64,000 nt of DNA from a virus, in IMG/VR virus record IMGVR_UViG_3300032315_000647, positions 1 to 64,000 of that record; one strand, written 5' to 3'. This document shows, one piece after another, positions 35,686 to 55,100 of the stretch. Position 1 is the stretch's first letter; every line of letters starts with the position of its first letter. The position numbers were made by a program, and so were the translations under genes. Below the pieces are notes generated by a model. That model saw only the letters and a program-made list of their open reading frames with translations, did no database searches and was not told the origin of the DNA.

Positions 35686-35984
35686 GCAATCAATTTTTCT
35701 ACACTCGTAAAGAGTTGAAGAGCGGTACACCTGAGAATCCTGTGTACAATGTGTTTCGTGATAGCTTCAATGTGAACAAGGTGATACGCACCGTAGCTAT
35801 TGAAGATGGTAGAGTGATGGTGCTTCTGGATGATTTGCATGAGCGTGCACAAGATGTACCTGACATGGATGCTAAGACTAATAAGATTAAGGGGTATAAG
35901 CGTCAAAGGAACACCTTCCAGAGTGAGATATATTTGGAGGGAGAGGATGTCGAAAGGTTTTACATAACAACATCTATTAATTAA
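35682..35984 (+). CDS. hypothetical protein
   Basis: ORF track; coupled at both ends. Confidence 0.65.
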   Translation: MSNQFFYTRKELKSGTPENPVYNVFRDSFNVNKVIRTVAIEDGRVMVLLDDLHERAQDVPDMDAKTNKIKGYKRQRNTFQSEIYLEGEDVERFYITTSIN

Positions 35985-36979
35985 TGAGACCTATTTTCTT
36001 CTACTGGGATGGTGGGATAAGCAATAGTAGGATGAAAGTCTTACAAGATTGTATGTATTCTACAAGAGTGCACAATCCTGAATGTCCTATTGTATTAGTG
36101 AGCAATAGTATATCAAGCAGTTCGTTTGATGACACTTATAGAATAAGTGTTATGAAATGGGACAGATCATTGATAATGCAATCTCCATTTCCAAAGGATA
36201 AGATTGATCTCTATCTGGATGGTGATAGGTGTATTACAGGTTATAGAGAGCTTTCTGATTTAATAAGATTGGCAGTTCTTTATAGATATGGTGGTTCCTA
36301 CATAGATACAGACGATCTTTGCATCAAACCTATTCCAGTAGAAGAAAATATTATTTGTCGTTCGTACGATCCTCACACTGCACATTACAATCTCGTAACT
36401 CCTGAAGATTGTATTCCTGGAGTGTACAGAGAAATACGTGGGTATGATCACATCAACTTCTTTCCAAGAAACGACTGTTGGTTAAACTTTGTACCAAAGC
36501 ATCCTTTGATACGTGATATATTAAGCAACCCTAAACTAAATGGGATAAACAAACCTGTTTATATTGGGGACGGATTCTCATGGCAATCTCTTACATTAGA
36601 GGCATGTATGAAATACATCATGCACATAAATGACATATTCAGAACATCTCTTACACTTCTCTATCTATTTGAGGATTTTGTGTCAGCAAGTTCTTTCTGG
36701 GACAGGTGTCATCATGGAGGAGAAATGTGTGATTTGTACAATGAAATATTTCCTGATCTTAAGGAATATGAATGGGGATTCTATAAGTGCACTAAAGACG
36801 TAGCAGAGAGATTCCTAGAAACAGTGATAGACAAATATCCTCATCTGTCACACATGTGGCTTCATAGAAAGGATGAGAATCCAGAATGGATGTTAGAAGA
36901 CCTAGATGCTGAAGGTAAGTATGCTGTATCTACATGGATTTATAAAATTCAAAAAGACAAAATAAAGAGCTATATATGA
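35984..36979 (+). CDS. glycosyltransferase, GT32/DXD sugar-binding family
   Basis: IFFYW; SDLIRLAVLYRYGGSYIDTD. Confidence 0.85.
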   Translation: MRPIFFYWDGGISNSRMKVLQDCMYSTRVHNPECPIVLVSNSISSSSFDDTYRISVMKWDRSLIMQSPFPKDKIDLYLDGDRCITGYRELSDLIRLAVLYRYGGSYIDTDDLCIKPIPVEENIICRSYDPHTAHYNLVTPEDCIPGVYREIRGYDHINFFPRNDCWLNFVPKHPLIRDILSNPKLNGINKPVYIGDGFSWQSLTLEACMKYIMHINDIFRTSLTLLYLFEDFVSASSFWDRCHHGGEMCDLYNEIFPDLKEYEWGFYKCTKDVAERFLETVIDKYPHLSHMWLHRKDENPEWMLEDLDAEGKYAVSTWIYKIQKDKIKSYI

Positions 36980-37668
36980 TTTCCGTATTGACACTAACAT
37001 ACAAGAGACCTCATCTTTTAGAAGAAGCTATTGAATCATTTCTTAGACAATACACCACTCATCCAAAGGAAATGGTTATCATAAACGATAACAAAGATGT
37101 AGACTATGTTTACAATCATCCTGATGTAACAATCATCAATTGTAAAGAAAGGTTCTCATCTGTATCTAAAAAACTTCAATGGGGATTTAGTCAGTGTAAG
37201 TATGATTACATTTACAGACTGGACGATGATGATTTGTTAACAGAAAATGGGTTACAGAAAGCTTGTGATTACATCATCAACAATCCAGGATATGATATAT
37301 ACAGAGCTTCTGGTTTCTATTTCTTTGTGAATAATAAACTAGATGGGTGGACAACTAGTATCAATAATGGAAACATCTATAGCAAAAGCTTTGTTGAAAG
37401 AATTGAGTTTCCTGATACATGTATAGGAGAAGATGCAGACATCACGTTCCATAAAGGAGGAACTTGGTGGGAACCAAAAGAGAAAGATGCAACAATGATC
37501 TACCGTTGGGGAATGGGAACACTTCACATATCAGGGATGGGGAATCAACCTAATGACATCATCTTAAACAAGGCTGATAAAGTGTTAGACAATAGAGTGG
37601 GTACAATAACGCTACATCCAAAGTTTTTATCAGATTATTATGAACAAATAAAAAAAGCCCCTATTTAG
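36976..37668 (+). CDS. glycosyltransferase family 2
   Basis: ISVL..TYKRP.LLEEAIESFLRQ, EMVIIND, YIYRLDDDD, GED. Confidence 0.88.
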   Translation: MISVLTLTYKRPHLLEEAIESFLRQYTTHPKEMVIINDNKDVDYVYNHPDVTIINCKERFSSVSKKLQWGFSQCKYDYIYRLDDDDLLTENGLQKACDYIINNPGYDIYRASGFYFFVNNKLDGWTTSINNGNIYSKSFVERIEFPDTCIGEDADITFHKGGTWWEPKEKDATMIYRWGMGTLHISGMGNQPNDIILNKADKVLDNRVGTITLHPKFLSDYYEQIKKAPI

Positions 37669-37758: not shown

Positions 37759-37896
37759 TTATTTAGAAAGTCTTTTCTGTTTCATAGGCCATTGAGGACT
37801 CTTGAGTCTGAGTTTCGTATCAGCCTCTTTCATATAATTGTCCTTTGGTCTAGGATTGTTCACCTTTGGAGCCTTTCTTGGTTTGCCACTTTTCAT
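37759..37896 (-). CDS. small basic protein (45 aa)
   Basis: Own translation MKSGKPRKAPKVNNPRPKDNYMKE...; TAATG coupled. Confidence 0.6.
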   Translation of the reverse strand: MKSGKPRKAPKVNNPRPKDNYMKEADTKLRLKSPQWPMKQKRLSK

Positions 37897-38288
37897 TAGC
37901 AACCATTTTTACACTTCTTCATACCACCTTTACCACTAGTGTTCTTACCAATAGTGCGACCATAAGTAGACAAACGAGTGGATGTGCTACTCTTAGAAGG
38001 AGAAAGAGTTGCTCCATTACGAGCTTTCTTAATCTTACCACCTTTACGCATACCTCCTACTTCAGGAACTTCGGGTCTCAGTTTAGCCATATTCTTCTGG
38101 AGATATTCTTTACCACGTTCTGAACGAGTTGCTCTTTCTACTACTCTTTTAGTGACACGTTCAGCCCTATCAGGATTCTTAGCACTCAACCTACCAATCC
38201 TTTTAAGTTGCCCACGCCTAAGGTAAACCTTCTTACCACCTTGAGCCTTTTCACCATCAGCTCCGCTTTTAGCAGCAGTCTTTTTCAT
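37896..38288 (-). CDS. Lys/Arg-rich protein with KxGGK-type motifs
   Basis: ORF track; KAQGGKK, MRKGGKIKKARNG. Confidence 0.7.
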   Translation of the reverse strand: MKKTAAKSGADGEKAQGGKKVYLRRGQLKRIGRLSAKNPDRAERVTKRVVERATRSERGKEYLQKNMAKLRPEVPEVGGMRKGGKIKKARNGATLSPSKSSTSTRLSTYGRTIGKNTSGKGGMKKCKNGC

Positions 38289-38296
38289 TGTATATA

Positions 38297-38629
38297 TTAT
38301 TTAGATTTTTTTAGTTTACCACCATTCTTAATGACACCACGTCCTTTAAGAACATCAGCACGAGTCACTTTACCATCTCCTGTGAGATCAGGAAAGCTCT
38401 TTCCAGACTTAGCTTTCATTATACCACCACTCTTCATTTTCTTCTTAGGAGCAGGTTTAGCTTTGGCTTTAGTTTTATTATAAGTGCTAGGCCCTACCAC
38501 ATCTTGCAAAGCAGATCTAGGAATCATTTTACCAGGAAACATCTCACTAGGAACAGAATCTACAGCAGCCTTTTTCTTTGCAGGGCTCATTATCTTAGTT
38601 CCTTTCTGAGCCTTCTTAATTGTTTTCAT
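38297..38629 (-). CDS. Lys-rich protein with an EF-hand/dockerin-like loop
   Basis: DLTGDGKVTRAD; MKSGG and KNGGK motifs. Confidence 0.7.
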   Translation of the reverse strand: MKTIKKAQKGTKIMSPAKKKAAVDSVPSEMFPGKMIPRSALQDVVGPSTYNKTKAKAKPAPKKKMKSGGIMKAKSGKSFPDLTGDGKVTRADVLKGRGVIKNGGKLKKSK

Positions 38630-38650
38630 TACTATCTATAATTTTAATTG

Positions 38651-38932
38651 TTAACAATTCCATTTACGAAGAGACTTATTAATCCTGCTGTTGGGATCAT
38701 TAGCAGTTTTAGCAGAGGTGAGGCGCTTCTTCATACCAGACATTCTAGCACAAAATGATTTACGTCTACTAGCAGCTTTACTTCCTGGTTTAAGTTTGGA
38801 AGGTTTAGTAGTGACAGCAGTTTTGAGTTTGGATCCAGGGTTAGCTTTTCTATAGGAAGCAACACCTTTAGCATTCAATCCTCCAGAAGGATTCTTACCC
38901 TCTTTTCTTTGCCAAGCTGGACTCTTTGCCAT
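38651..38932 (-). CDS. DUF6321-like basic phage protein
   Basis: AWQRKEGKNPSGGLNAKG, RRKSFCARM, DPNSRINKSLRKWNC. Confidence 0.75.
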   Translation of the reverse strand: MAKSPAWQRKEGKNPSGGLNAKGVASYRKANPGSKLKTAVTTKPSKLKPGSKAASRRKSFCARMSGMKKRLTSAKTANDPNSRINKSLRKWNC

Positions 38933-38934
38933 AT

Positions 38935-39093
38935 CTATTTCTTTTTAGCTTTAGCCATCTTCTTGAATGTCTTAGCAAGAGCCTTAGCTCTTCCTGTACA
39001 TCCAGGCTTTGTAATAGGGGTACATTTACCTTCAGTTCCTCTACGTTTAATAGAGGCTGTGGCTTTCTGTATCCACTTTTTGTCTGTAGCCAT
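38935..39093 (-). CDS. small basic protein (52 aa)
   Basis: Own translation MATDKKWIQKATASIKRRGTEGKCTPITKPGCTGRAKALAKTFKKM... Confidence 0.65.
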   Translation of the reverse strand: MATDKKWIQKATASIKRRGTEGKCTPITKPGCTGRAKALAKTFKKMAKAKKK

Positions 39094-39095
39094 GA

Positions 39096-39242
39096 CTATT
39101 TCTTTTTAACCTTTCCACCCTTTTTCATATTACCAAGAGTGCGTTCTTGCACCTTTGTCCAAGCACCCTTGGGATCAACCATAGGGGCTTTCTTGGTGGT
39201 TTTTGTTACACCACCAGCTTGTGCCTTTTTTAACTTTGCCAT
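39096..39242 (-). CDS. small basic protein (48 aa)
   Basis: Own translation MAKLKKAQAGG...MKKGGKVKKK. Confidence 0.65.
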   Translation of the reverse strand: MAKLKKAQAGGVTKTTKKAPMVDPKGAWTKVQERTLGNMKKGGKVKKK

Positions 39243-39472
39243 TATGCTTCAGTTTTCAGGAGTTCGTCCTTGCTGTTAGTAAGGAAGTTTTTAGCCAAAT
39301 AAGCAACAGCTGCCTTACCAGCAACAACAGCAATATCCAGAAGTTGCTGTACAGTGGGAAGAGAACCTGCATCAAGAATAGTGTAAATGCCTTGTGTAAT
39401 AACAAGCAGTACAGCTACAACAATACCGTTAGACAGATCCTTAAAATTCAGATTGAGAAAACCGCTTTTCAT
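39242..39472 (-). CDS. small membrane protein, possible holin
   Basis: Two hydrophobic segments; DL..G.VVAV; AYLAKNFLT. Confidence 0.6.
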   Translation of the reverse strand: MKSGFLNLNFKDLSNGIVVAVLLVITQGIYTILDAGSLPTVQQLLDIAVVAGKAAVAYLAKNFLTNSKDELLKTEA

Positions 39473-39484
39473 ATATTATAGTTT

Positions 39485-39652
39485 TTATTTACCTTTTGCC
39501 TTTATCTTACGCTCCTGTTTGAGCATAGCTGCTGTAGGCTTTTTACCAGACTTACCAGCAGCTTTGTTTTTCTTAGCTGCTGCACGAATGTTATCCCAAA
39601 GTCCTCTTTGAGAAACACTTCCGTCAGCACGCTTCATCATTTGTTTTGCCAT
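39485..39652 (-). CDS. small basic protein (55 aa)
   Basis: Own translation MAKQMMKRADGSVSQRGLWDNIRA...KKPTAAMLKQERKIK. Confidence 0.65.
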   Translation of the reverse strand: MAKQMMKRADGSVSQRGLWDNIRAAAKKNKAAGKSGKKPTAAMLKQERKIKAKGK

Positions 39653-40651: not shown

Positions 40652-40924
40652 TTATCCAGGACTAGTTGTTGTTGTAGTTGTAGTAACAGGTCTAGTTGTT
40701 GTTGTGGTAGTTGTGCTAGTAGAAGTGCTAGTAGTAGTAGTTGTACTTGTGCTACTAGTAGATGTTGTAGTTGTTGTTGGATTACAACACTCATAAGCAT
40801 CAATTTCCTCCCAGTTACCTACAGCAGGCTTAAACCTATTGAGGATTAAACTACCAGAGATTACACGACCTGTACCATCATAACGTACAAATGCTTTTAA
40901 CGGTCTTTTATTTATACTTGCCAT
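40652..40924 (-). CDS. small protein with a mucin-like poly-Thr/Ser tail (paralog of 40937)
   Basis: KRPLKAFVRYDGTGR...KP.VGNW.EI.AYECCNP followed by about 40 aa of T/S. Confidence 0.8.
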   Translation of the reverse strand: MASINKRPLKAFVRYDGTGRVISGSLILNRFKPAVGNWEEIDAYECCNPTTTTTSTSSTSTTTTTSTSTSTTTTTTTRPVTTTTTTTSPG

Positions 40925-40936
40925 ATTATATTAGTT

Positions 40937-41212
40937 TTAAAGGGCTGTTGTAGTTGTGGTGGTAGTGGTTAGTTCTGCAGTGGTTGTGGTAGTAGTGGTA
41001 GTAGGAGTTCTAGTAGTACTAGTTGTAGTAGTAGTAGGTACACCTGTGGTGGTAGTAGTGGTAGTAGGATTGCAGCACTCATATGCTGGTATCTCTACCC
41101 AATTACCAACCTTAGGTTTCTTTCTTCTTAGAATCAGGCTGCTAGGAACGATTCTCCCAGTACCATCAAAGCGTACATAAGCTTTGAGAGGGCGTTTGTC
41201 AATTGATGCCAT
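40937..41212 (-). CDS. small protein with a mucin-like poly-Thr tail (paralog of 40652)
   Basis: KRPLKAYVRFDGTGR...YECCNP followed by poly-Thr. Confidence 0.8.
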   Translation of the reverse strand: MASIDKRPLKAYVRFDGTGRIVPSSLILRRKKPKVGNWVEIPAYECCNPTTTTTTTGVPTTTTTSTTRTPTTTTTTTTAELTTTTTTTTAL

Positions 41213-41214
41213 GA

Positions 41215-42231
41215 TTAGTAATTTAAATTATACTTGTTAAATAATGTTTTCAGTTCATTTGCGTAATACCATGTGCATCTTTTCTTGGAATTCTCATCAT
41301 TTAGAATAACATCTAAATGAGGATCTTTTGAAGGATCTGCACCTGTATGATATTTACCTTTATAGAAACAGTTATAACCATCCATAAAGGTGTTTACAAT
41401 TCCTGCATTATGAAGAATAGGATGAGTTTCTAGTTTTTCCACCATGTCAGGACTCCAACTAAATCCCATTTCAGGAATAATCTTTACATCCTTTCCTCTC
41501 ACCCAAAGATTCCAAAGAACTGCCCACATATCTGCACACCAACTTTGAAATCCTTTATTCTCATTTTCAAAATACAACTTGTTTATATGCTGTAGATATC
41601 TCCTAATCAGTATGCAATCATTCATCACCTTGCTCCAAAAGTCTGCATCTATATTCTTAAGGAGATATTGAGCTCCACCACTATCATCATTCTTTCCCTC
41701 AGCTTCCTCTCTACTAATACCAATTACGCTACCTATCTCAGCAAGGATGTCTCTTGTTTTGTATTCATCAAGTTTTTCAGGAAGTACATCCCTCACCTTG
41801 CTATCAAAATAGGAAGCTCCAATGTAGCTCACTGTATCAGAAACATAACAAACATCATCATTAATAAACTGTTGAACATCAAACTTTTCTGTAAAAAGAA
41901 TGTCTGAGTCACAGTAGAATATAGCTTGGTTGCTTAATTCAGGATGTTCTCTCCAGTGTCTCCATAATGTATAAGGTCGTAACACTGGAATATACACACC
42001 TAATTGTGAACTAATTTGATGTTCATCTTTGTAAAAATGAAACTCAGCTTCTGGATATAAGTCCACTATCTGTTTCCAATTCTCATTCTTCTCTCTAAAG
42101 TTGGGAGTGAACACTAGAACAATTGCTTTGTCTGATTCATTCCTTTTCTTCAGACTTTCCAACCACAGATGCACTTGCCATGTGTAATAAGTGTCATCTG
42201 GCTGAACGCATACATACTTCAGATCCTTCAT
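41215..42231 (-). CDS. GT-A fold glycosyltransferase resembling peptidyl-Ser/Hyp O-glycosyltransferases (GT95/GT96-like)
   Basis: YYTWQ, YIPVLRPY, FYCDSDILF (DxD), GGAQY, WCADMWA, ILHNAG. Confidence 0.65.
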   Translation of the reverse strand: MKDLKYVCVQPDDTYYTWQVHLWLESLKKRNESDKAIVLVFTPNFREKNENWKQIVDLYPEAEFHFYKDEHQISSQLGVYIPVLRPYTLWRHWREHPELSNQAIFYCDSDILFTEKFDVQQFINDDVCYVSDTVSYIGASYFDSKVRDVLPEKLDEYKTRDILAEIGSVIGISREEAEGKNDDSGGAQYLLKNIDADFWSKVMNDCILIRRYLQHINKLYFENENKGFQSWCADMWAVLWNLWVRGKDVKIIPEMGFSWSPDMVEKLETHPILHNAGIVNTFMDGYNCFYKGKYHTGADPSKDPHLDVILNDENSKKRCTWYYANELKTLFNKYNLNY

Positions 42232-42251
42232 AATGTAGTTTATTGGTTTAT

Positions 42252-42295
42252 AAAAAATTTGCGAAAGATAGCGTTTTTCACTACTTTTCGCAAAA
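42252..42295 (-). promoter_or_regulatory. composite terminator and promoter upstream of the GT gene
   Basis: Minus strand hairpin TTTGCGAAAAGTAG/CTATCTTTCGCAAA plus T6, containing TTTG-N20-TATCTTTC. Confidence 0.6.
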
Positions 42296-42442
42296 TTAAG
42301 GTGTTATTGTGGTGGTGGTTGTGGTGGTGAAGTTACCATTTGCTTGAGCTAGTTGACCAGAGATTTTCTCTAGCTGCTTACTAATTTGCCACAACAGATT
42401 CTCTGTAGTGCCCCAACCTATTCCTCTAGATGGTATTGGCAT
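42296..42442 (-). CDS. 48-aa protein with an IPSRxIGW module and poly-Thr tail (not in ORF track)
   Basis: Own translation MPIPSRGIGWGTTENLLWQISKQLEKISGQLAQANGNFTTTTTTTITP; N-terminus paralogous to 42457. Confidence 0.8.
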   Translation of the reverse strand: MPIPSRGIGWGTTENLLWQISKQLEKISGQLAQANGNFTTTTTTTITP

Positions 42443-42456
42443 TATCTTATATTTTA

Positions 42457-43041
42457 TTATCCAACATTAAATATGGAAAGGTTAACAGATGGAGATGCAG
42501 GTCTAGTTGGATTACTTCCTGCAGCAGTTGGTAAAAGTCTCATACCAGTGGCTTGTGACCACCAATAAAACTTAAGATATTGTCCAGCAGTCAATGGGAT
42601 TGTATCTGTTATTTTTGCAAGTGTCTGATCATTTTGTGCTCCAGTGGTAGTGAATGTAAATGCTGAATTAGGCACAATTACATCATTAACCGTATACCAA
42701 ACAGTTACATTATAATTTGATGCACCACCTGTAAATGCAAGTTGAAGACCAAGACTTAAAAAGTAAGTTCCTGCATTAATAACATCTATTCTATTACTAG
42801 TCAATGTAAACCCATTAGCAATTTGTGTTGAATTAATTAACACCTGATTAGCTGTGGTTGCTCCACCATTTGTTTGTAAGGTGGTATCAAAAAAGGTTGC
42901 AGAATAAAGACTAACTTTTGATGCAGCAATGTTGTCGTTAAGGGTACAGAGCTGACAGCTAGCTTGCTCCATTTGCTTAGCAATCTGCCACAACAGGTTG
43001 TCCTGTGTGCTCCAACCGATCTGTCTTGATGGAATAGCCAT
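42457..43041 (-). CDS. putative virion decoration protein with an IPSRxIGW module and a C1q/BclA-like beta domain
   Basis: F.DTT.QT, NAGTY......QL, VW...N...VPNSA, L.AGQY, P.SPSV. Confidence 0.6.
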   Translation of the reverse strand: MAIPSRQIGWSTQDNLLWQIAKQMEQASCQLCTLNDNIAASKVSLYSATFFDTTLQTNGGATTANQVLINSTQIANGFTLTSNRIDVINAGTYFLSLGLQLAFTGGASNYNVTVWYTVNDVIVPNSAFTFTTTGAQNDQTLAKITDTIPLTAGQYLKFYWWSQATGMRLLPTAAGSNPTRPASPSVNLSIFNVG

Positions 43042-44793: not shown

Positions 44794-47700
44794 ATGCCTA
44801 ATAGTTATACATTCTTTAAAGCTGAAATTAGACAGTGGTTTATTGATAATATTCCTTCTGATACAAGGATTTTAGATGTTGGTCCTGGTCAAGGCACTTA
44901 TTCAGATTTACTTAGAGATCTTGGATATAGAATAGATGCTGTTGAGATATGGGCTCCCTATGTAGAACAGTTTAACCTCAGGGCCAAATATGATAATGTT
45001 TATGTAAAAGACATATTGAACTTTAATGTTAGCTCTTACGACTTTATTATTCTGGGAGATGTATTAGAACACATTCCTACAGAAGATGCTCAGGAACTTC
45101 TTACCAAGTTCGATTTGATGGAAAAGAGATTCATGGTTGCTGTTCCTTACATGATGCCTCAAGATGGAGCAGAATACGGGAATGAGCATGAAACTCATCA
45201 TCAGGAAGACCTTACGCCAGATGTAATGTTAGAACGTTATCCAGGACTAGAGAAACTTTATGATAATCAGTGGTATGGATATTATGTAAACGTTGACACT
45301 AGGTTTGAGAAAGCCTATGTTTTATATGCTACAGAGAGTTATAAAGACACTGTACAAGCATGTGTTTATTCTATAAAAGCATATAGTAAGATTCCTATAA
45401 TTGTTTACATGCTCAACTCAGATGAAGAGATCAATGGAGCTGTTACAATAAGTTGGGACTGCAAAGTTAAAAATGTTCCTCAGCAGAAGTATATCAATAG
45501 AGATGACAGAGATATATACAACATACTGATACAAAGACCAGCTATTGTAAAAGATGCTCTTAAATATGCTAAAACTGTAGCATATGTGGATAGTGATAGT
45601 GTAGCCACTAGGTTTGTAGATAGAATGTTTGATCTCTATCCTACTAAATCTACTCATCCATATTTTACAGAAGGTATTTATGAATGGATGCATCACAATG
45701 GTAGAGGAGGTGCTGAAAGTATGGATGATCTAAGTACAACGTTAGAGCATCCAGCTTGTGAGTTGTTTGGTGTAAACCAGTATGTTAGAAAGAAATACGT
45801 ACAGACAGGATATTTTGTAGCTGGACAATGGTGTAAAACATTCTTAGAAGAGTGGCAGTGGATGTGTAATCATCCTAAGGTTGTAAAAAATCCACAATAC
45901 TATGCCCCTTATCATGAAGAAACTATAGTTAATGTCCTCCTTTGGAAGTATGATGTAAATGATGGGCTTCCATACATATACATCAATGGGTCTTTGGACG
46001 TAGTGAATAGCTCAGAGTTTACAGGACAAAAAGAACACATAGGACATTTCATCGCCACTCCTGCAGAAAAGAAAGACCTGTTGTTCTATCATGGAGAAAA
46101 AGATCCTCTTACAATGTACAGAATGTTGGAACGTATGAAGAATAGACCTAATATATTGTTTCTAGCTCCTCATCTATCTACAGGTGGTATGCCAGCTTTC
46201 TTGTTAAAGAGAATAAAGGCATTGATGCAATTCACTGATGTAGAAATAGTTGTTGTGGAATATGCCAATCATAGCGATGATTATGTGGTCCAGAAGAACC
46301 AGATAAGAAACTTAGTGAAGTATTTCTATACACTAGGTGAGAACAAGATGGAAGTGATAGACATTATCAAAAAACATGGAATAGATGTAGTGCACATTGA
46401 TGAGATGGTAGAAGATGGTTGGAATAATTGGCCAGAAGAACTTAGGGAAGCTTTGTATGTAGATGACAGAGCTTGGAGAGTAGTGGAGACATGTCATAAT
46501 ATTGTATTCAATCCAGATATTGAAAAGCGCTATCACCCAGATGCATATGCATTCTGTACTCCCCATCACTTGAAAACATTTGCTAACATGCCTTCTAGAA
46601 AGGAAGTGATTGAGTTTCCTATAGAAAGGAAGGATGATATAGCTCTCAATTTTGGTAAAGGTTATCATGTATTGAATGTAGGACTATGGACCCCTGGCAA
46701 AAACCAAGGAGAAGCTGTAGAGCTGGCTAAACAAATGCCAGATGTACAGTTTCACTTTGTAGGTAATCAGGCTGGTAACTTCCAACACTATTGGGAACCA
46801 ATCATGAAAGATCTTCCTTCTAATGTGCATGTGTGGGGAGAGCGTGATGATGTAGGTAGCTTTATGAAAGGATGTGATGTCTTCATGTTCAACAGTACAT
46901 TTGAGTGTAATCCGTTGGTAATTAGGGAAGCTATAGGATATGGTAAACCAATTCTTGCAAGAAATCTTCCTCAGTATGGAGATATGTTCACTAAGTATAT
47001 TACACATCTAGAGCCTGATAGGATGAAAGAGCAATTGTATGACTTATTGAAAAATGATACCACTTACACTATTCCTGAGAATCAAACAGAGGAATTTGGT
47101 AAGCGTCACTTACAGTTATATCAGGAAGTTGTAAGTAATGGTTGTCAAACTGACGTTGAAAACATTACAATTGCTCATTATTTTGTTCATGAACCTTTCT
47201 TGGAAATAACAGGAAACTCTGATAGTAAGTTTACAGTGAAATATTTTGATGAGAGTGGTAAGTGTTATTATGATAATGTAATAGGAATTAATAGTTGGGT
47301 GAGAATCAACAGAAGATGGTTTACTAGATGGACAATAAAAATATGGAAGGATGAAGAGATGTATTATGAATACACTCTTAATTACGAGAATCAACGTGTT
47401 TATATATCCTTTGATAGTAAATCGTTAGGAGATACAATAGCATGGATGCCTTATGTTCTTAAGTTTAAGAAGAAACATAACTGTCATGTTATAGTGAGCA
47501 CATTCAAGAACTTCCTCTTTAAAGATGTCTACCCAGAACTTGAATTTGTAGATCCTGGTTCAAGAGTAGATAATATTTTTGGAATGTACACATTAGGTTG
47601 GTTTTATAATCCAGATAAAGAACCTGAACTTTGTAACACTATTCCTCTTCAGAAAGCAGCATCTAACATCTTAGGTGTTGATTATCAGGAACTCAAACCA

Positions 47701-48216
47701 CGGATAGCATTTACACCTAGTAACAAATTATATGATAAATTTGTTACAATAGCTACTAATTCCACAGCTGCTTGTAAGTTTTGGACTAAGGAAGGATGGC
47801 AAGAAGTTATTAATTTTCTCCACGAGAAGGGATATAAAGTGATAAATGTATCTATAGAAAGGAACTCATTTGACAACTGTGAGCAACTAGAAGATACATC
47901 TATGGAGAACACTATGAATACTATTCATCATAGTGAGTTTTTCATAGGACTTTCTAGTGGTTTGAGTTGGTTAGCCTGGGCTCTGGATAAGAAAGTGGTT
48001 ATGATAAGTAACTTTACAGAAGCTGATCATGAGTTCCAATGTATCAGGGTGAGTAAAAAGGATGTGTGTAATGGATGTTGGAATAAATCACACAACAGAT
48101 TCAATCCAGGAGATTGGTATTGGTGCCCTGAACATAAAGGAACAGACAGACAATTTGAATGTCACACATCAATAACAGCTAGTGATGTTATTAATCAAAT
48201 ACAACATTTGTTATGA
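44794..48216 (+). CDS. multidomain enzyme: SAM methyltransferase, GT-A, GT4, and autotransporter O-heptosyltransferase (TibC/AAH-like)
   Basis: ILDVGPGQG; YVDSDSV; APHLSTGGMP, KNQ and ECNPLVIREA; SKSLGDTIAW, FFIGLSSGLSWLAWAL, CNGCWN..WCPEH..FEC. Confidence 0.85.
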   Translation: MPNSYTFFKAEIRQWFIDNIPSDTRILDVGPGQGTYSDLLRDLGYRIDAVEIWAPYVEQFNLRAKYDNVYVKDILNFNVSSYDFIILGDVLEHIPTEDAQELLTKFDLMEKRFMVAVPYMMPQDGAEYGNEHETHHQEDLTPDVMLERYPGLEKLYDNQWYGYYVNVDTRFEKAYVLYATESYKDTVQACVYSIKAYSKIPIIVYMLNSDEEINGAVTISWDCKVKNVPQQKYINRDDRDIYNILIQRPAIVKDALKYAKTVAYVDSDSVATRFVDRMFDLYPTKSTHPYFTEGIYEWMHHNGRGGAESMDDLSTTLEHPACELFGVNQYVRKKYVQTGYFVAGQWCKTFLEEWQWMCNHPKVVKNPQYYAPYHEETIVNVLLWKYDVNDGLPYIYINGSLDVVNSSEFTGQKEHIGHFIATPAEKKDLLFYHGEKDPLTMYRMLERMKNRPNILFLAPHLSTGGMPAFLLKRIKALMQFTDVEIVVVEYANHSDDYVVQKNQIRNLVKYFYTLGENKMEVIDIIKKHGIDVVHIDEMVEDGWNNWPEELREALYVDDRAWRVVETCHNIVFNPDIEKRYHPDAYAFCTPHHLKTFANMPSRKEVIEFPIERKDDIALNFGKGYHVLNVGLWTPGKNQGEAVELAKQMPDVQFHFVGNQAGNFQHYWEPIMKDLPSNVHVWGERDDVGSFMKGCDVFMFNSTFECNPLVIREAIGYGKPILARNLPQYGDMFTKYITHLEPDRMKEQLYDLLKNDTTYTIPENQTEEFGKRHLQLYQEVVSNGCQTDVENITIAHYFVHEPFLEITGNSDSKFTVKYFDESGKCYYDNVIGINSWVRINRRWFTRWTIKIWKDEEMYYEYTLNYENQRVYISFDSKSLGDTIAWMPYVLKFKKKHNCHVIVSTFKNFLFKDVYPELEFVDPGSRVDNIFGMYTLGWFYNPDKEPELCNTIPLQKAASNILGVDYQELKPRIAFTPSNKLYDKFVTIATNSTAACKFWTKEGWQEVINFLHEKGYKVINVSIERNSFDNCEQLEDTSMENTMNTIHHSEFFIGLSSGLSWLAWALDKKVVMISNFTEADHEFQCIRVSKKDVCNGCWNKSHNRFNPGDWYWCPEHKGTDRQFECHTSITASDVINQIQHLL

Positions 48217-48881
48217 GAGAGTTTCTATGGGAACCTGAATGTTATCCAGGATTTAGAGAGCATGTAGAAAAAGAAATCTTTGTAGATAGAATCTATGAGA
48301 GATATTTTGAGGTTGAGAAAGGGGATGTTGTGTTCGATGTTGGTGCTAGTCTAGGACCATTCACCTATTCAATACTTGAAAAACAACCTTCTCATGTCTT
48401 TGCATTTGAACCAAGCTTTGAGGAATATAAGACGTTAGTGTTGAACACTCGTAAAGGACCTGTTACACATATTAACAAGGGTGTATCAAATCATATTGGA
48501 GAATTCAATTTTGAATATGTGTTCAGTGTTGGTGAGAATGAAATACAGTATTCAACCACCTTCAAAAAAGTGATTGATGATTACAATATTCAAAAGATAG
48601 ACTTTCTAAAAACAGATTGTGAAGGAGGAGAATATGATATATTCAATCTGGAAAACCTTATTTGGATTAAACAGAATGTCAGAAAGATTGCTGGTGAGTG
48701 GCATTTAGGAACTCCAGAATTGAAAGATAAGTTCAGAGTGTTTAGAGACACCTATCTTAGGATGTTTCCTAATTTTAAGATTAGATCTTTCAATGGATTC
48801 AATGTTGAAGAAAATCTTTGGACAGAACCATTTATTGAAGTGTTCACTGAACTCATCATCTATATTGATAATAGGCACTAA
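48213..48881 (+). CDS. FkbM family methyltransferase
   Basis: VVFDVGASLG.F, VFAFEP, IDFLKTDCEGGEY, EWH. Confidence 0.88.
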   Translation: MREFLWEPECYPGFREHVEKEIFVDRIYERYFEVEKGDVVFDVGASLGPFTYSILEKQPSHVFAFEPSFEEYKTLVLNTRKGPVTHINKGVSNHIGEFNFEYVFSVGENEIQYSTTFKKVIDDYNIQKIDFLKTDCEGGEYDIFNLENLIWIKQNVRKIAGEWHLGTPELKDKFRVFRDTYLRMFPNFKIRSFNGFNVEENLWTEPFIEVFTELIIYIDNRH

Positions 48882-49320
48882 TCTTTTTGTAAACAAAATT
48901 GTTTACTAAGTGTAAACAATACTGTATAGGTAGGGAGGATGTATCAATATGTAGAACATCCTCCCCCTCTATTGGTTTTTCAAAATCTTTAACTTGATAA
49001 TCTTCTTTTTCTCTATCTTCTTCATAAGTCAAATAGATCCAAGAAACATCACTTGTTAAAGTTCTTAAATAGTCTCTGGCTTCCTTATAAGGATAGACAA
49101 GTGATAGGATTACATTCTTTCCTGTACTATTTAGGAAGTGGGCTATATCACTAGCCCTGTTCAGGTTCTTGATTCTTCCTTCTCTAGAATAGTCTTTGTT
49201 TGCAAACAATTCTCTCAAAGCATCACCATCTATATTCACATATGTACTATCGTTAGCCAATATCTGACTTGCTAATGTGGTTTTTCCACTACCAGGTTGT
49301 CCAAATAGTACGATTATCAT
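48856..49320 (-). CDS. cysC: adenylyl-sulfate (APS) kinase
   Basis: G.PGSGKTTLA, IDGD..R, DYSREGR..N, VI.SLV.PY...R, FE.P. Confidence 0.85.
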   Translation of the reverse strand: MIIVLFGQPGSGKTTLASQILANDSTYVNIDGDALRELFANKDYSREGRIKNLNRASDIAHFLNSTGKNVILSLVYPYKEARDYLRTLTSDVSWIYLTYEEDREKEDYQVKDFEKPIEGEDVLHIDTSSLPIQYCLHLVNNFVYKKISAYYQYR

Positions 49321-50132
49321 TTGTAGTTGAATCTATTAAAATACCATTGAAAGTTATCTTTTATCCATTTACAAACGTCAGCTCCTAATATTTTTTGAGC
49401 ATCGCTTCTTAAAGGTTCCACTTTCTTTCTAATTGTATGATCTCCAAAGATTCCATGAATTTCATCATCTTCCTGTGTCACTTGCTCTACATTATCAAAA
49501 TCATGAATGAAGTCTTCAATTCCAAGATATTGATATAACTGTGTCATTGTTGTCTGTGGATAGAGACACAAGTCTTCATACTTTATAAAATGAATATGTT
49601 TATCAATTCCTTGTCTGAATATTTCATTTAGTCTTTCAATTGCAAGTCCTACAGGAGGACCTGCTAACCATGCATCAATTCTTTTTGGTGTGGTAGTTCC
49701 TTGACCTGTTGTCCAGTTGAGAATCTTATCTTGCTTATCAGGATGTTTCCTAAAGTTTTTCTCCATGCTACAGAAGATATCTCGTAAGTCTCTTACCATA
49801 CAAACTATCTTAGGTTGAGGATATACAAAGTTGAGAAAATCATAATGTATTCCCCATCCTCTAGACTTGTCTAGAATATATCTTTTGTCTGTAATTGCAT
49901 TGTAATATCCTTTAAGACCTTCATGACAAAAGCCTTTAAAAGCTTCCTTCATAATAGCAGGATCTTGAGCTTTGAACTCACCGCTGTCTGTGTAATTAGA
50001 TCTTGCTGCATAAATCAGTTCAAGTACACCGCTGGTAGGAGTACAATAAAAATCAGGTCTCTGTGCAACAATGTTTTGCAAAAGAGTGCTACCAGTTCTT
50101 GGAAGTGAACTCTGAAAGAATATTTTCTCCAT
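49317..50132 (-). CDS. PAPS-dependent sulfotransferase
   Basis: LPRTGSTLL (5'-PSB), DKSR, VRD.RD...S (3'-PB), KYEDL. Confidence 0.88.
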   Translation of the reverse strand: MEKIFFQSSLPRTGSTLLQNIVAQRPDFYCTPTSGVLELIYAARSNYTDSGEFKAQDPAIMKEAFKGFCHEGLKGYYNAITDKRYILDKSRGWGIHYDFLNFVYPQPKIVCMVRDLRDIFCSMEKNFRKHPDKQDKILNWTTGQGTTTPKRIDAWLAGPPVGLAIERLNEIFRQGIDKHIHFIKYEDLCLYPQTTMTQLYQYLGIEDFIHDFDNVEQVTQEDDEIHGIFGDHTIRKKVEPLRSDAQKILGADVCKWIKDNFQWYFNRFNYK

Positions 50133-51407: not shown

Positions 51408-52112
51408 TTAAATGATTCCAATACTAAACCTATTCTTAAATACATTGAAATTTTGTAACTCCTCATCAGGAGTTAGTGCTCTAGTATAAAAAAGAGCAGT
51501 TCCAATCCTTCCTCTTAGCTGAACACTACTTCCATTACTATTACGATTAATCATCCAAGCATTAGTGAAATTGACAGTTCCTAAGGATCCGTATGTGTTC
51601 GTAATCCTACTAGTATTATTTATTCTAATTGACATAGATAAAGTGGATGTGTCTCTCACTCCTGATACAAAATTCCAAACGTTTTGAGTTAATGTAGCGC
51701 TTGCAGACCTTCCACCACCGTCTGATACCATAGTGATATTACTAGGAGCAGTTGTTGTTAATCCAAATGTGTTCCCACCACTATTACTTGATGTAAATAG
51801 TCCAGCATTGTCATATTGTCCTTCTGTGTACATTATAACAACTTGCATAGTTAATCCTGAAAGACCAGTGTAAGATGCTGCACTGTTTATATTGAATACA
51901 GAAGAGAAAGGTGAGAAGTCACTGAAGTATATACCATTAAAAACATTGGGATAGAACGTAAATGTACCATTCATTGTGGCATCATAACCACTAATCAAAT
52001 CTTTCCAAGTTGTTCCTGTTCCTCCATAAGACCTTGTTTGGGCAGCATCGTACCACAATGCTAGTCCATTAGTAACCACTGGTATTCCTGAACTTGCTGC
52101 TATACCAAGCAT
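51408..52112 (-). CDS. LamG/concanavalin A-like lectin domain virion protein
   Basis: VTNGL.L.YDA....SY.GTGTTW.DL; W.FV.GV; G.IG....YTRALT.DE..QNFN. Confidence 0.8.
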   Translation of the reverse strand: MLGIAASSGIPVVTNGLALWYDAAQTRSYGGTGTTWKDLISGYDATMNGTFTFYPNVFNGIYFSDFSPFSSVFNINSAASYTGLSGLTMQVVIMYTEGQYDNAGLFTSSNSGGNTFGLTTTAPSNITMVSDGGGRSASATLTQNVWNFVSGVRDTSTLSMSIRINNTSRITNTYGSLGTVNFTNAWMINRNSNGSSVQLRGRIGTALFYTRALTPDEELQNFNVFKNRFSIGII

Positions 52113-52121
52113 TTTTAAGTT

Positions 52122-55100
52122 TTAAGCTGTTAAGTTACCAATTAAATACCATTCGTCAGTAGCCACCTTCATAAGTGTTACAGCACCATATTGGGCATTG
52201 AGCTTACGCCAACTGTTAGCGCTTCGCAAAGTTACGCCAGCACAAGCACAAACAGTAGTTTGACCAGCACCATATTGCGTAACATTCAAACAAGTACCAA
52301 TTGGGAAAGCCACTTGACTACATGCTGGAACACATATGTTGTTTGCAGCTCCGACATTCATTTCAACCGTCTTACCAGAATCAGCCAAAACTAATGCATA
52401 AGAAGCAGCTTGTCTATTGAACTGTGTCAGTCCATTAAGTTTACCACAAGAACAAACGTTATTGAAATATGCTGTACAAGCATCAAGACCAGTGAGTCCA
52501 CAGCCCATAACAATTGTATAATTGTTACAAGCTAAACTGCTCTGACCAAATGCTAAGGATCCACAACAGAATGCCTTGTTTGATTGTCCTCCTATAATAG
52601 CACTACTTCTACCAAGAGCACAGTTGTCAAATCCTCCTCCTACACTAGCATAAACACCTGATGCAGAGTTAGCACTACCTCCTGCTACAGTTGCATAAGT
52701 GCCTGCAATATTAACTGCACCCCCACCGACAGTACCGTAGTTTGAACACACACAATTTCGTGATCCACCTCCAACTGTTGCTGCTACAGCTGAACCAGCA
52801 AATGGACATATTAATCTATTTCTGTCTCCACCACCAATAGATCCAAAAGGTGTGTTGACATCTATTATATTACAAAAACCTCCACTTATTACCGAACAAC
52901 AGCTGTTCAGTATATTACAATTACCTCCTCCTATTGTACTATGTACTACATTACAAAGCTTATTTGAAGATCCTCCAACAATAGCTGAATAATATCCACC
53001 GTCAATTGCATTAGTACATCCTGATCCTATTAATGAAAATTGTCCAAAAAGCATTGAGTTGCCCTGACCTGAACTTATTCCAGAACCATTACTGTAAGTT
53101 GATATAGTATTACCATAACCGCCTGATATTACTGATTGACCAGAGAAATTTAATATTAAGTTAAGACTACCTCCTCCAACAGTTGAATCAGTTGAATTAA
53201 TACTGACACAATTTCCACTACCTCCTGAGATTGTTGAATAGTATCCTGAGGCTGTGTTATTACATCCTCCACTAACAGTGGCATAATTTCCTGTAGTGGT
53301 GTTGAGTTGACCACAACGAACACTAGAACCAGTCCCTGCACCAAGTATAATTACAGGCGCACTTCCTGAAAATGATGTACCAGAACTTCCAGAAGTTCCA
53401 GACGTACCAGCCCCTCCAGTAACACCGCTTGTTCCACTAGTTCCACTAGTTCCAGTTCCACCATTAACTCCAGAAGTACCTGATGTACCGTTATTACCAT
53501 TAACTCCAGAGGTACCGCTAGTACCTCTAGTACCTGATGTTCCAGACGTACCTGAAGAACCAGCAGCACCATTAACTCCACTGGTTCCACTCGTACCACT
53601 TGTACCTGCTGCACCAGTTCCACCATTTACACCAGATGTACCTGAAGTTCCTGAAGAACCTGCTGCACCGTTGATTCCTGACGTACCACTAGTTCCATTG
53701 TTACCATTAACACCGCTAGTACCAGATGTTCCATTTACACCAGAGGTTCCAGACGTTCCATTATTACCGTTCACTCCAGAAGTTCCACTTGTTCCCCTAG
53801 TGCCCGATGTTCCTGATGTACCACTTGTTCCAGCAACACCGTTAACACCACTTGTACCTGAAGTGCCAGAACTACCTGCTACACCGTTAACTCCTGAAGT
53901 GCCAGAAGTACCACTGCTTCCAGCTGCACCATTTACTCCTGATGTTCCGCTTGTTCCTGAACTGCCAGCAGCTCCATTAACACCACTAGTCCCACTAGTA
54001 CCATTTACACCCGAAGTACCTGATGTGCCAGCTGCGCCATTCACACCAGACGTTCCACTTGTTCCGTTAACACCTGAAGTTCCTGAAGTTCCGTTCACTC
54101 CACTAGTTCCAGAAGTTCCGTTATTTCCATTCACCCCAGATGTACCAGAGGTTCCTCGTGTACCTGATGTACCAGAAGTCCCTGTTGTACCACTAGTTCC
54201 AGATGTACCAGATGACCCTGCTGCACCGTTAACACCTGATGTACCGCTAGTACCTGATGATCCTGCAGCTCCGTTAGCTCCACTAGTGCCACTTGTTCCA
54301 GATGTTCCATTCACTCCACTTGTACCACTAGTCCCAGAGGTGCCATTATTTCCGTTAACACCAGAGGTCCCAGAAGTCCCTGTAGTACCAGAGGTTCCAC
54401 TAGTACCAGATATACCTGACGTACCGCTACTACCATTTGCACCAGAAGTTCCAGATGTGCCATTCACACCTGAAGTACCGCTCGTTCCTGAAGTGCCGTT
54501 AGCTCCAGATGTCCCAGAGGTTCCATTTATACCAGAAGTTCCGCTAGTTCCATTGTTACCAGAAGTACCAGACGTACCTGTAGTTCCACTAGTGCCAGAC
54601 GTACCATTAATCCCTGAAGTACCACTTGTACCATTAATGCCACTAGTCCCTGATGTACCATTGATTCCACTGGTTCCTGAAGTACCATTGACACCAGAGG
54701 TTCCATTTGTACCGTTGATTCCACTAGTGCCACTCGTTCCTCTAGTTCCACTAGTTCCTGATGTTCCACTAGTTCCATTCACTCCAGAGCTACCCGAAGT
54801 GCCTGTGGTACCACTTGTACCTGAGGTTCCATTGATTCCTGAACTACCAGAAGTACCGTTCACTCCAGACGTACCGCTCGTACCATTAACTCCACTCGTA
54901 CCACTCGTTCCTGATGTGCCAGCTAAGCCTGAAGTACCACTAGTTCCATTAATTCCAGATGTGCCTGATGTACCAGTTGTACCACTAGTGCCATTTAAGC
55001 CTGAAGTTCCAGATGTTCCGTTCGTTCCATTAATTCCAGAAGACCCACTGGTTCCACTTGTGCCATTTATTCCTGACGTGCCACTTGTACCTGAAGAACC

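Follow-up and report, generated by a model that had tools for sequence, protein, structure and literature searches.

Putative O-glycosylation of poly-threonine tags on phage virion proteins by a GT-A glycosyltransferase of family PHROG 4417

The stretch between positions 40,652 and 42,442 of virus record IMGVR_UViG_3300032315_000647 raises the question of why a gene for a glycosyltransferase (GT) is flanked on both sides by small genes whose products end in runs of threonine (Thr). We addressed this question in the first 64,000 nucleotides of the record (hereafter the window), in the remainder of the complete 114,745-bp genome, and in homologous loci of other phages and of bacteria. An earlier note on this DNA had read the arrangement as an enzyme-plus-substrate cassette, in which an enzyme resembling the plant hydroxyproline O-arabinosyltransferases (HPAT, family GT95) carries out mucin-type O-glycosylation of small virion decoration proteins. 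The cassette itself is borne out by comparison, both through gene linkage in many phage lineages and through co-variation of the enzyme with Thr tails on tail-tube proteins, and we consider it fairly probable that the enzyme O-glycosylates poly-Thr tags on virion proteins in the host cytoplasm, although “mucin-type” should be taken as an analogy only. All four open reading frames (ORFs) of the proposed cassette were found at the expected coordinates on the minus strand, and the three that flank the enzyme gene do end in Thr runs. In order of transcription, and including one additional ORF located just upstream, the locus reads as follows:

42457..43041, minus strand: 194-aa protein with the N-terminal segment of the 48-aa ORF and a globular C-terminal part, no Thr tail
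42296..42442, minus strand: 48-aa ORF, candidate acceptor, with a 37-aa N-terminal segment followed by FTTTTTTTITP
41215..42231, minus strand: predicted soluble GT-A glycosyltransferase of 338 aa, with a PHROG 4417 match, an AlphaFold2 (AF2) model, and an invariant DxD motif
40937..41212, minus strand: 91-aa ORF, candidate acceptor, with a 48-aa N-terminal domain (N-domain) ending in ECCN, then four T7-T8 runs separated by short spacers
40652..40924, minus strand: 90-aa paralog of the 91-aa ORF, candidate acceptor, with a 28-residue serine/threonine (S/T) run and a second Thr run

The enzyme matches PHROG 4417, a family annotated as function-unknown, over nearly its entire length (residues 4-329 vs profile positions 1-290 of 293; E 4.9e-54, 184 bits). 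It had no match in NCBIfam or, at E≤1, in Pfam, including the GT8 profile (Glyco_transf_8), and a sequence search of the Protein Data Bank (PDB) returned nothing at E≤10. The four motifs on which the proposed HPAT likeness was based are all found in the claimed order, namely YYTWQ (residues 15-19), YIPVLRPY (80-87), CDSDILF (107-113), and WCADMWA (231-237). Across an alignment of 50 homologs extending down to 30% identity, residues Y80, D108, D110, and Q229 never vary, and conservation reaches at least 90% for R85, Y106, and D234. The motif columns are likewise conserved in a further set of 106 homologs, either more distant or fused, with D108 and D110 again invariant. Because they fall on invariant or nearly invariant columns, these four motifs represent family signatures rather than chance resemblances. 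Two additional residues invariant in the 50-homolog alignment, H274 and K291, are part of an H-N-A-G...K segment.

An AF2 model based on this 50-sequence alignment (predicted local distance difference test, pLDDT, 96.9; predicted template modelling score, pTM, 0.93) displays a GT-A fold in which the conserved DxD (D108-S-D110) directly follows a central strand (residues 103-106). Structural search of the PDB returned 105 chains at Z≥8, the top ones all GT-A, led by glycogenin (Z 14.6), Skp1 alpha-GalT (14.0), LgtC (13.9), WbbM (13.6), and UGGT (13.3), with GlyE from the pneumococcal serine-rich-repeat pathway (12.5), LARGE1 (12.4), and A64R of PBCV-1 (11.0) ranking lower. The GT8-like matches at Z 12.5-14.6 superpose with root-mean-square deviations of 3.7-4.0 Å over 216-243 residues at only 9-15% sequence identity, and Foldseek concurs with these GT8-like neighbours (E 3e-7 to 1e-5). 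Among viral models in BFVD, the only close matches were an uncultured-phage protein (TM-score 0.83/0.88) and Orf49 of Lactobacillus phage LP65 (0.70), beyond which scores fall to about 0.5 for GT8-labelled proteins of giant viruses. Judging from the model, the protein is a GT-A glycosyltransferase of the DxD type whose family stands on its own, nearest to the retaining GT8/GT24 group, with a likeness at the fold level only. By analogy with these fold neighbours and this fold class, it would use a retaining mechanism, with D108, D110, and H274 as putative metal ligands. The protein starts with MKDLKYVCVQPDD, its first modelled strand spans residues 4-11, and it has no signal peptide, membrane segment, or hydrophobic N-terminal segment, so that it would act in the cytoplasm. 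Some homologs are fused to GT2, GT6, GT29, or methyltransferase domains. In Enterococcus phages phiFL1C (GQ478083.1) and phiFL2A (GQ478084.1/NC_013643.1), the homolog is matched in two pieces, annotated as two genes or under a tail-protein feature, which may reflect a frameshift or a fusion.

The enzyme gene is linked to poly-Thr tracts well beyond the window. Within the same clade, represented by 80 IMG/VR loci with an enzyme 63-84% identical to the window protein, nearly all loci include a 44-57-aa ORF with a T6-T10 ending ~25-35 nt upstream, along with one or two S/T-run ORFs, most of which start 3-20 nt past the enzyme stop. This same-clade linkage indicates that the genes are real and kept, but it counts as one inheritance. 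The neighbourhood survey of homologs called for in the earlier note extends the pattern to about a dozen lineages of Firmicutes and Bacteroidota phages in which poly-Thr genes adjoin the enzyme gene. The homolog is adjacent to a major tail protein ending in GTTTTTSTTTTTTSSTTTTTTTQASSK in Enterococcus phage phiFL1A, two Thr-repeat proteins in Lactobacillus phage Semele, a tail protein ending in T10-HHD in Lactococcus phage 1706, a Thr-repeat protein in Lacticaseibacillus phage iLp84 (in which head and tail proteins end in T7-SK), a gene with a Thr tract in Chryseobacterium phage MA9V-3, a tail tube with a Thr tract in Clostridium phage phiCTP1, and a tail protein and a poly-Thr ORF in Staphylococcus phage SA2. 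TTVKP repeats are found beside the homolog in L. brevis phage SAC12B and TTTETQTQ repeats in LP65, and a Thr-tract gene adjoins it on a 297-kb jumbo contig and in two further IMG/VR clades. At two loci, a large Thr-run protein has a reading frame that contains the enzyme match or overlaps with it, and in Enterococcus phage vipetofem the Thr-tailed major tail protein is five genes away from the homolog, not adjacent. When genes were ranked by distance, poly-Thr tracts were present in 13 of 40 immediate neighbours vs 3 of 50 genes at least five positions away, the usual carrier being the upstream neighbour.

The presence of Thr tails also co-varies with that of the enzyme. Whatever the frame, the 38.8-kb genome of phiFL1A has runs of at least six Thr nowhere but at the C-termini of its major head and major tail proteins, and apart from the homolog none of its 61 annotated genes is GT-like. 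The tail-tube protein of this phage (SPP1-type) has 50-60% identical orthologs in many phages, among which those of Streptococcus phages Javan47 and 315.6 and of Lactobacillus phages phiJL-1 and ATCC8014 come from genomes without the enzyme, have no Thr run, and stop just past a conserved RPGE..G.. segment. The tail-tube proteins of phiFL1A and R3.3, two phages in which the enzyme is present, run on instead into T6-T21 tails; R3.3, phiJL-1, and ATCC8014 are members of one genus. A profile search of five whole records (R3.3, Javan47, 315.6, phiJL-1, and ATCC8014) recovered the enzyme only in R3.3 (E 7.9e-78). Gain and loss of the tag thus go along with gain and loss of the transferase. Our literature search found no paper tying this enzyme family, or HPAT-like enzymes, to phage poly-Thr tails, or describing such a module.

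For the window phage itself, the Thr-tailed products fall into two families, both of which represent real genes since their N-terminal parts are conserved in related IMG/VR contigs. The 91-aa ORF starts 3 nt past the enzyme stop and is 66% identical to its 90-aa paralog. The shared 48-aa N-domain of this family follows the pattern LKAyVRfDGtGR...PKVGnW.EI.AYECCN, with invariant C46 and C47, and is followed by modules of about seven Thr plus x-A-P; a search of the ESM Atlas with a 49-aa version matched only unnamed viral clusters (0.77-0.80). The same N-domain also heads 99 longer proteins, immediately followed by a Thr run in half of them, which continue with LRR/LRR_5, DUF1566, Fib_succ_major, DUF285, ice-binding-like, or Peptidase_S74 domains, i.e., domains typical of fibres and adhesins. 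Because these longer relatives carry fibre- or adhesin-type domains, we favour a reading in which the N-domain anchors the protein, the Thr run forms a stalk, and the 90- and 91-aa proteins are minimal forms with no head. The 48-aa ORF and its 194-aa neighbour follow the same logic of a common N-terminal segment continued by either a Thr tail or a globular part: the two are 62% identical over 37 aa (E 3e-15), and the 194-aa protein, for which no Pfam or PHROG match was obtained, is probably, as judged from this similarity, a full-length relative of the 48-aa ORF. In related contigs, the short form exists in 27 distinct versions, always continued by T6-T10. That these are small virion decoration proteins, as the earlier note had it, is thus plausible given the adhesin-like relatives of the N-domain, in which case they would sit on the virion.

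Beyond the cassette, a six-frame translation of the complete genome includes 25 runs of at least six Thr, all on the minus strand and mapping to six ORFs with long Thr runs, three of which flank the enzyme gene. The Thr codons are mixed (ACA/ACT/ACC), so it is the protein sequence that is maintained and not a simple DNA repeat. The other three carriers are larger proteins located outside of the window, of which two or more belong to the virion module (positions in the complete record):

83932-90270, minus strand: 2112-aa virion structural protein with ~550 residues of T7-x3 repeats
93882-94979, minus strand: 365-aa protein rich in Cys and Thr tracts
97141-98316 (= L083:13241-14416), minus strand: 391-aa protein of the head-tail module, three genes from the major head gene

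Relatives of the 391-aa protein are 79-89% identical, and a fixed-length tail, C-x-TTTSTTTT-VWP-STTTTSTLIP, is found in 80 of 80; its AF2 model, based on a shallow alignment, reached a pLDDT of 48. The three small neighbours proposed as substrates are likely acceptors, although the candidate set is wider than had been suggested, with these three larger proteins also included. As a separate observation, the repeat unit consists of about seven Thr and then a spacer of two or three residues with Pro in last place (T7-VAP, T7-VKP, T5-KP), and this T7-plus-Pro unit recurs in phages of both Bacteroidota and Firmicutes (window positions 40652-41212; loci L086, L088, and L085), which may reflect recognition by the enzyme.

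The enzyme gene is also part of an island, at 36-50 kb, of genes for GTs and other modifying enzymes:

35984..37668, plus strand: two genes, Gly_transf_sug (DXD, GT32-type; PF04488, E 1.5e-11) and GT2 (PF00535, E 4.2e-15)
44794..48216, plus strand: 1140-aa fusion of a methyltransferase, an unassigned region, a GT4-type domain, and an Aah/TibC-type O-heptosyltransferase (Pfam, TIGR04414)
48213..48881, plus strand: FkbM-family methyltransferase (TIGR01444, E 4.7e-15)
48856..49320, minus strand: adenosine-5'-phosphosulfate (APS)-kinase-like P-loop kinase (PF01583, E 2.3e-13)
49317..50132, minus strand: sulfotransferase (PF13469, E 7.6e-19)

Within the 1140-aa protein, the Pfam domains identified are Methyltransf_11/23, Glycos_transf_1, and Glyco_transf_9, and residues 811-1138 score 276.8 bits against TIGR04414 vs a curated cut-off of 200. 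An Aah/TibC-type enzyme is unexpected in a phage. The unassigned second domain carries a DSDS motif; as a candidate paralog of the window enzyme it was rejected (hhalign probability 3.5%). The APS-kinase-like and sulfotransferase genes overlap by 4 nt and are located beside GT genes, and the pair may sulfate a glycan or a protein. Overall, the gene content of the island would fit a built-up, methylated, and perhaps sulfated glycan, with several candidates for the start of the chain.

Based on these data, we propose that the window enzyme is a soluble, metal-dependent GT-A enzyme probably active in the host cytoplasm late in infection, which would move a sugar from a nucleotide sugar to the Thr hydroxyls in poly-Thr tracts of phage proteins. 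Its immediate acceptors would be the three small Thr-tailed neighbours, with the Thr tracts of the three larger proteins encoded elsewhere in the genome as further acceptors. Elongation and decoration of the glycan would then fall to the remaining enzymes of the island, namely the other GTs, the methyltransferases, the APS kinase, and the sulfotransferase. The GT-A fold with its conserved DxD, the gene linkage, and the co-variation are what the data show, while Thr as the acceptor and the presence of any glycan are inferred. Several considerations weigh against this proposal. Poly-Thr neighbours are missing at several homolog loci (L099-L103 and most of those on bacterial chromosomes), and many of the lineages counted share ancestry, with truly independent associations numbering about a dozen, not hundreds. 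The poly-Thr tracts could be plain flexible linkers, or the TibC-like domain could be the initiating protein O-transferase and the window enzyme only extend the chain.

The last of these two scenarios, in which the Thr tracts are glycosylated but the window enzyme adds a later sugar to a chain started, for instance, by the Aah/TibC-like domain or a host enzyme, appears unlikely. This phage does encode at least five other GT domains, including the protein O-heptosyltransferase-type one scoring above its curated cut-off, and the fold neighbours GlyE, Skp1 alpha-GalT, and LgtC are extending enzymes. However, phiFL1A has Thr tails with no other annotated GT than the PHROG 4417 homolog, and the presence of tails tracks this enzyme specifically.

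It is similarly improbable that the poly-Thr tracts are unmodified spacers next to an enzyme that targets a host envelope polymer, phage DNA, or a small molecule, with adjacency due to shared late expression. Thr/Pro-rich linkers are common in fibre-like proteins, about one in two of the longer proteins related to the 90-aa family has a Thr run between two domains, and some homolog loci do not include poly-Thr neighbours. A phage precedent for another target was considered in Shewanella phage Thanatos, for which a 561-aa glycosyltransferase-phosphotransferase protein and a UDP-xylose pyrophosphorylase have been put forward as candidates for DNA pentosylation. Yet an unmodified spacer would not readily account for orthologous tail-tube proteins gaining and losing their tails along with the enzyme, and terminal tails, with nothing beyond them, cannot be linkers. 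The enzyme also has no membrane segment, and its gene is found inside late structural operons, not at lysogenic-conversion sites.

A very improbable option is that the small Thr-tailed ORFs are relics of larger modular proteins and are not expressed. In its favour, the N-domain also occurs in longer proteins with additional C-terminal domains, and the start of the 194-aa protein (37 residues) is similar to the neighbouring 48-aa ORF, but the length class and N-terminal sequence of the short forms are conserved over dozens of contigs with a GT 63-84% identical, with intact starts and stops and a tight spacing to the GT gene.

The relationship of poly-Thr O-glycosylation, our favoured role for the enzyme, to the plant HPATs is more distant than the motifs had suggested. 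The Pfam HPAT family (PF23452; 307 model positions, gathering cut-off of 23.9 bits) gave no match to the window protein at E≤1 and no candidate in the whole phage genome, and matched 3 of 155 distinct homologs, all weakly and below the cut-off. The best of these (P0238, 33% identical to the query) reached 21.9 bits (E 1.3e-4), with residues 9-242 aligned to model positions 9-230 of 307, and P0206 reached 15.4 bits. When five Bacteroidota genomes carrying homologs were searched with PF23452, nothing was found above the cut-off. No protein bearing a plant name or a precomputed HPAT label came up when P0238 served as the query, and homolog P0232 used as a query matched no viral contig. In the ESM Atlas, an HPAT label is attached to 20 of the 30 nearest named clusters, being carried by 10% and 58% of the members in the two clusters shown; both consist mainly of viral and bacterial proteins, which makes “plant family” too narrow a label. 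The nearest solved folds are GT8/GT24-like, but the PDB results contained no GT95 or GT96 structure. For GT96 (peptidyl-serine alpha-galactosyltransferase SGT1/SERGT1), also invoked in the initial comparison, a novel fold has been predicted (PMC8476585), whereas the window enzyme is by contrast a clear GT-A protein. The HPAT likeness therefore survives as weak, sub-threshold profile hits in homologs, the window protein not being a Pfam HPAT member, and the pattern is most consistent with a likely remote kinship, short of membership.

Plant HPATs are Golgi enzymes with a type II membrane anchor, and a hydroxyproline acceptor requires a prolyl 4-hydroxylase. The 2OG-Fe(II) prolyl-hydroxylase-type domain PF13640 is absent from the complete 114,745-bp genome, with control genomes positive, although the host may supply a hydroxylase, and some Thr tails do not include any Pro, e.g., “...GVTTTTTTTTTTHHD” in Lactococcus phage 1706. 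Because the phage has no such domain and some tails have no Pro, Thr, not hydroxyproline, is the common denominator of the candidate acceptors. These same two observations, along with the position of the window protein outside of Pfam HPAT, leave it highly improbable that this is a true HPAT-type enzyme acting on hydroxyproline at the Pro that often follows the runs (T7-x-A/K-P), the weak profile hits and HPAT-labelled Atlas neighbours notwithstanding.

Homologs are also encoded on bacterial chromosomes, including in Chitinophaga, Sphingobacterium, and Mucilaginibacter, where they are fusions of 480-830 aa, mostly without poly-Thr neighbours; those of Bacteroidota are fused to a second GT domain. 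This shows that the poly-Thr link is a phage trait and not a rule for the whole family. In Chitinophaga niastensis (L207:36-5824), the homolog is found in an operon, between ABC exporter, HlyD-type, and LanC-like genes, and in a Ferruginibacter metagenome-assembled genome (MAG; L210:407-649) an 81-aa ORF combines a double-glycine leader end (...LKNVLGG) with a Cys/Ser/Thr-rich core. Such chromosomal loci may be clusters for glycosylated ribosomally synthesized and post-translationally modified peptides (RiPPs) or bacteriocins, and this resemblance suggests that the wider family may act on peptides. A more encompassing reading, which we put forward tentatively and at somewhat short of even odds, is that PHROG 4417 is a widespread family of poly-Thr-directed protein O-glycosyltransferases, remotely akin to HPAT, that acts as a portable “tag plus transferase” sugar-coating phages of Firmicutes and Bacteroidota, including those of Enterococcus and Staphylococcus, with cellular relatives working on RiPP-like peptides.

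The source virus is complete, with direct terminal repeats and ~35% G+C. The window also codes for a DNA polymerase, RIIA/RIIB, a ribonucleotide reductase, and a UvsX-like recombinase. No isolated phage is closely related. Megablast of the 38-46 kb stretch gave no match, and the sole match of the major head protein was to a Leptolyngbya phage at 25% identity. Among species-representative genomes, all 16 enzyme matches are Bacteroidota, including a match at 60% identity on a contig of 112 kb that was binned with a Sediminibacterium MAG, and contigs of Cytophagales and Saprospiraceae MAGs, which is why this uncultured phage probably infects a Bacteroidota bacterium. The clade is abundant, with enzyme relatives on 286 IMG/VR stretches, many of them on contigs of 105-116 kb. 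A promoter and terminator scan of 39.8-45 kb yielded hits no more numerous than in shuffled sequences. Elsewhere in the window, six small (48-130 aa) and very Lys-rich ORFs stand in a row just downstream of the Thr/GT cluster (37896-39652, minus strand) and may encode DNA-binding or internal virion proteins. An 1801-aa protein (52122-57527, minus strand) matches collagen triple-helix repeats (E 5e-165), and downstream of its gene, with a 115-aa ORF in between, lies that of a 234-aa Laminin_G_3 (lectin-fold) protein (51408-52112).

The closest known system is virion glycosylation in mycobacteriophages, i.e., Che8 and its relatives, whose O-glycosylation is reportedly the subject of Freeman et al. 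2023 (Cell Host Microbe 31:1216; cited in PMC11256854 and PMC12582341). Both there and here, including in the comparator phages, a phage-encoded GT is combined with hydroxyl-rich tags on virion proteins, and in the comparators the tagged proteins are the major head and tail-tube proteins. The two differ in their hosts (Bacteroidota and Firmicutes vs Actinobacteria), in the pure poly-Thr tag, and in the small tag-only proteins flanking the GT gene, and the enzyme family here is PHROG 4417. In mycobacteriophages, cytoplasmic modification of the capsid proteins by GTs of the phage itself gives rise to a glycan shield (PMC11256854). Mycobacteriophages are also, in the literature found, the only phages for which experiments have shown glycosylated particles, and their shield alters antibody recognition (PMC11256854).

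Several other systems share individual features with this one. HPATs are predicted GT-A-like peptide-acting transferases (PMC8476585), with runs of hydroxylated residues in extended repeats, the extensins, as acceptors (PMC8012813). The likeness to HPAT1-3 consists of a profile similarity that is weak but covers most of the domain, seen in some PHROG 4417 homologs, while the window enzyme differs in having neither a Pfam match nor a membrane anchor, in a likely acceptor that is Thr and not hydroxyproline, and in the lack of a phage prolyl hydroxylase. The GT8/GT24 enzymes (glycogenin, LgtC, GlyE, Skp1 alpha-GalT, and UGGT) provide the best folds and share the DxD and the C-terminal His motif, and several of them act on proteins or protein-linked glycans; they remain separated from the window enzyme by their low sequence identity and the missing GT8 profile hit. 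A64R of chlorovirus PBCV-1, a major capsid protein GT, is likewise a virus-encoded cytoplasmic GT-A enzyme, but from a eukaryotic virus and not the closest fold match. PBCV-1 glycans are attached to Asn in atypical sequons. Finally, Aah/TibC enzymes (TIGR04414) perform cytoplasmic protein O-glycosylation of repeat-rich surface proteins, and the phage itself carries such a domain at a distance of 2.6 kb, although in a separate gene from the window enzyme and with a GT-B/GT9-like fold.

If the proposed poly-Thr O-glycosylation is correct, sugar-coated virions would be common among phages of lactic acid bacteria, enterococci, staphylococci, clostridia, and environmental Bacteroidota, with a bearing on phage therapy, through immune recognition and pharmacokinetics, and on the adhesion of phages to surfaces. 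A T6-T10 acceptor tag combined with a single soluble enzyme would further represent a glyco-engineering tool for bacterial proteins. Likewise, a lineage of peptide-acting transferases so far deemed plant and algal would gain a large viral and bacterial wing.

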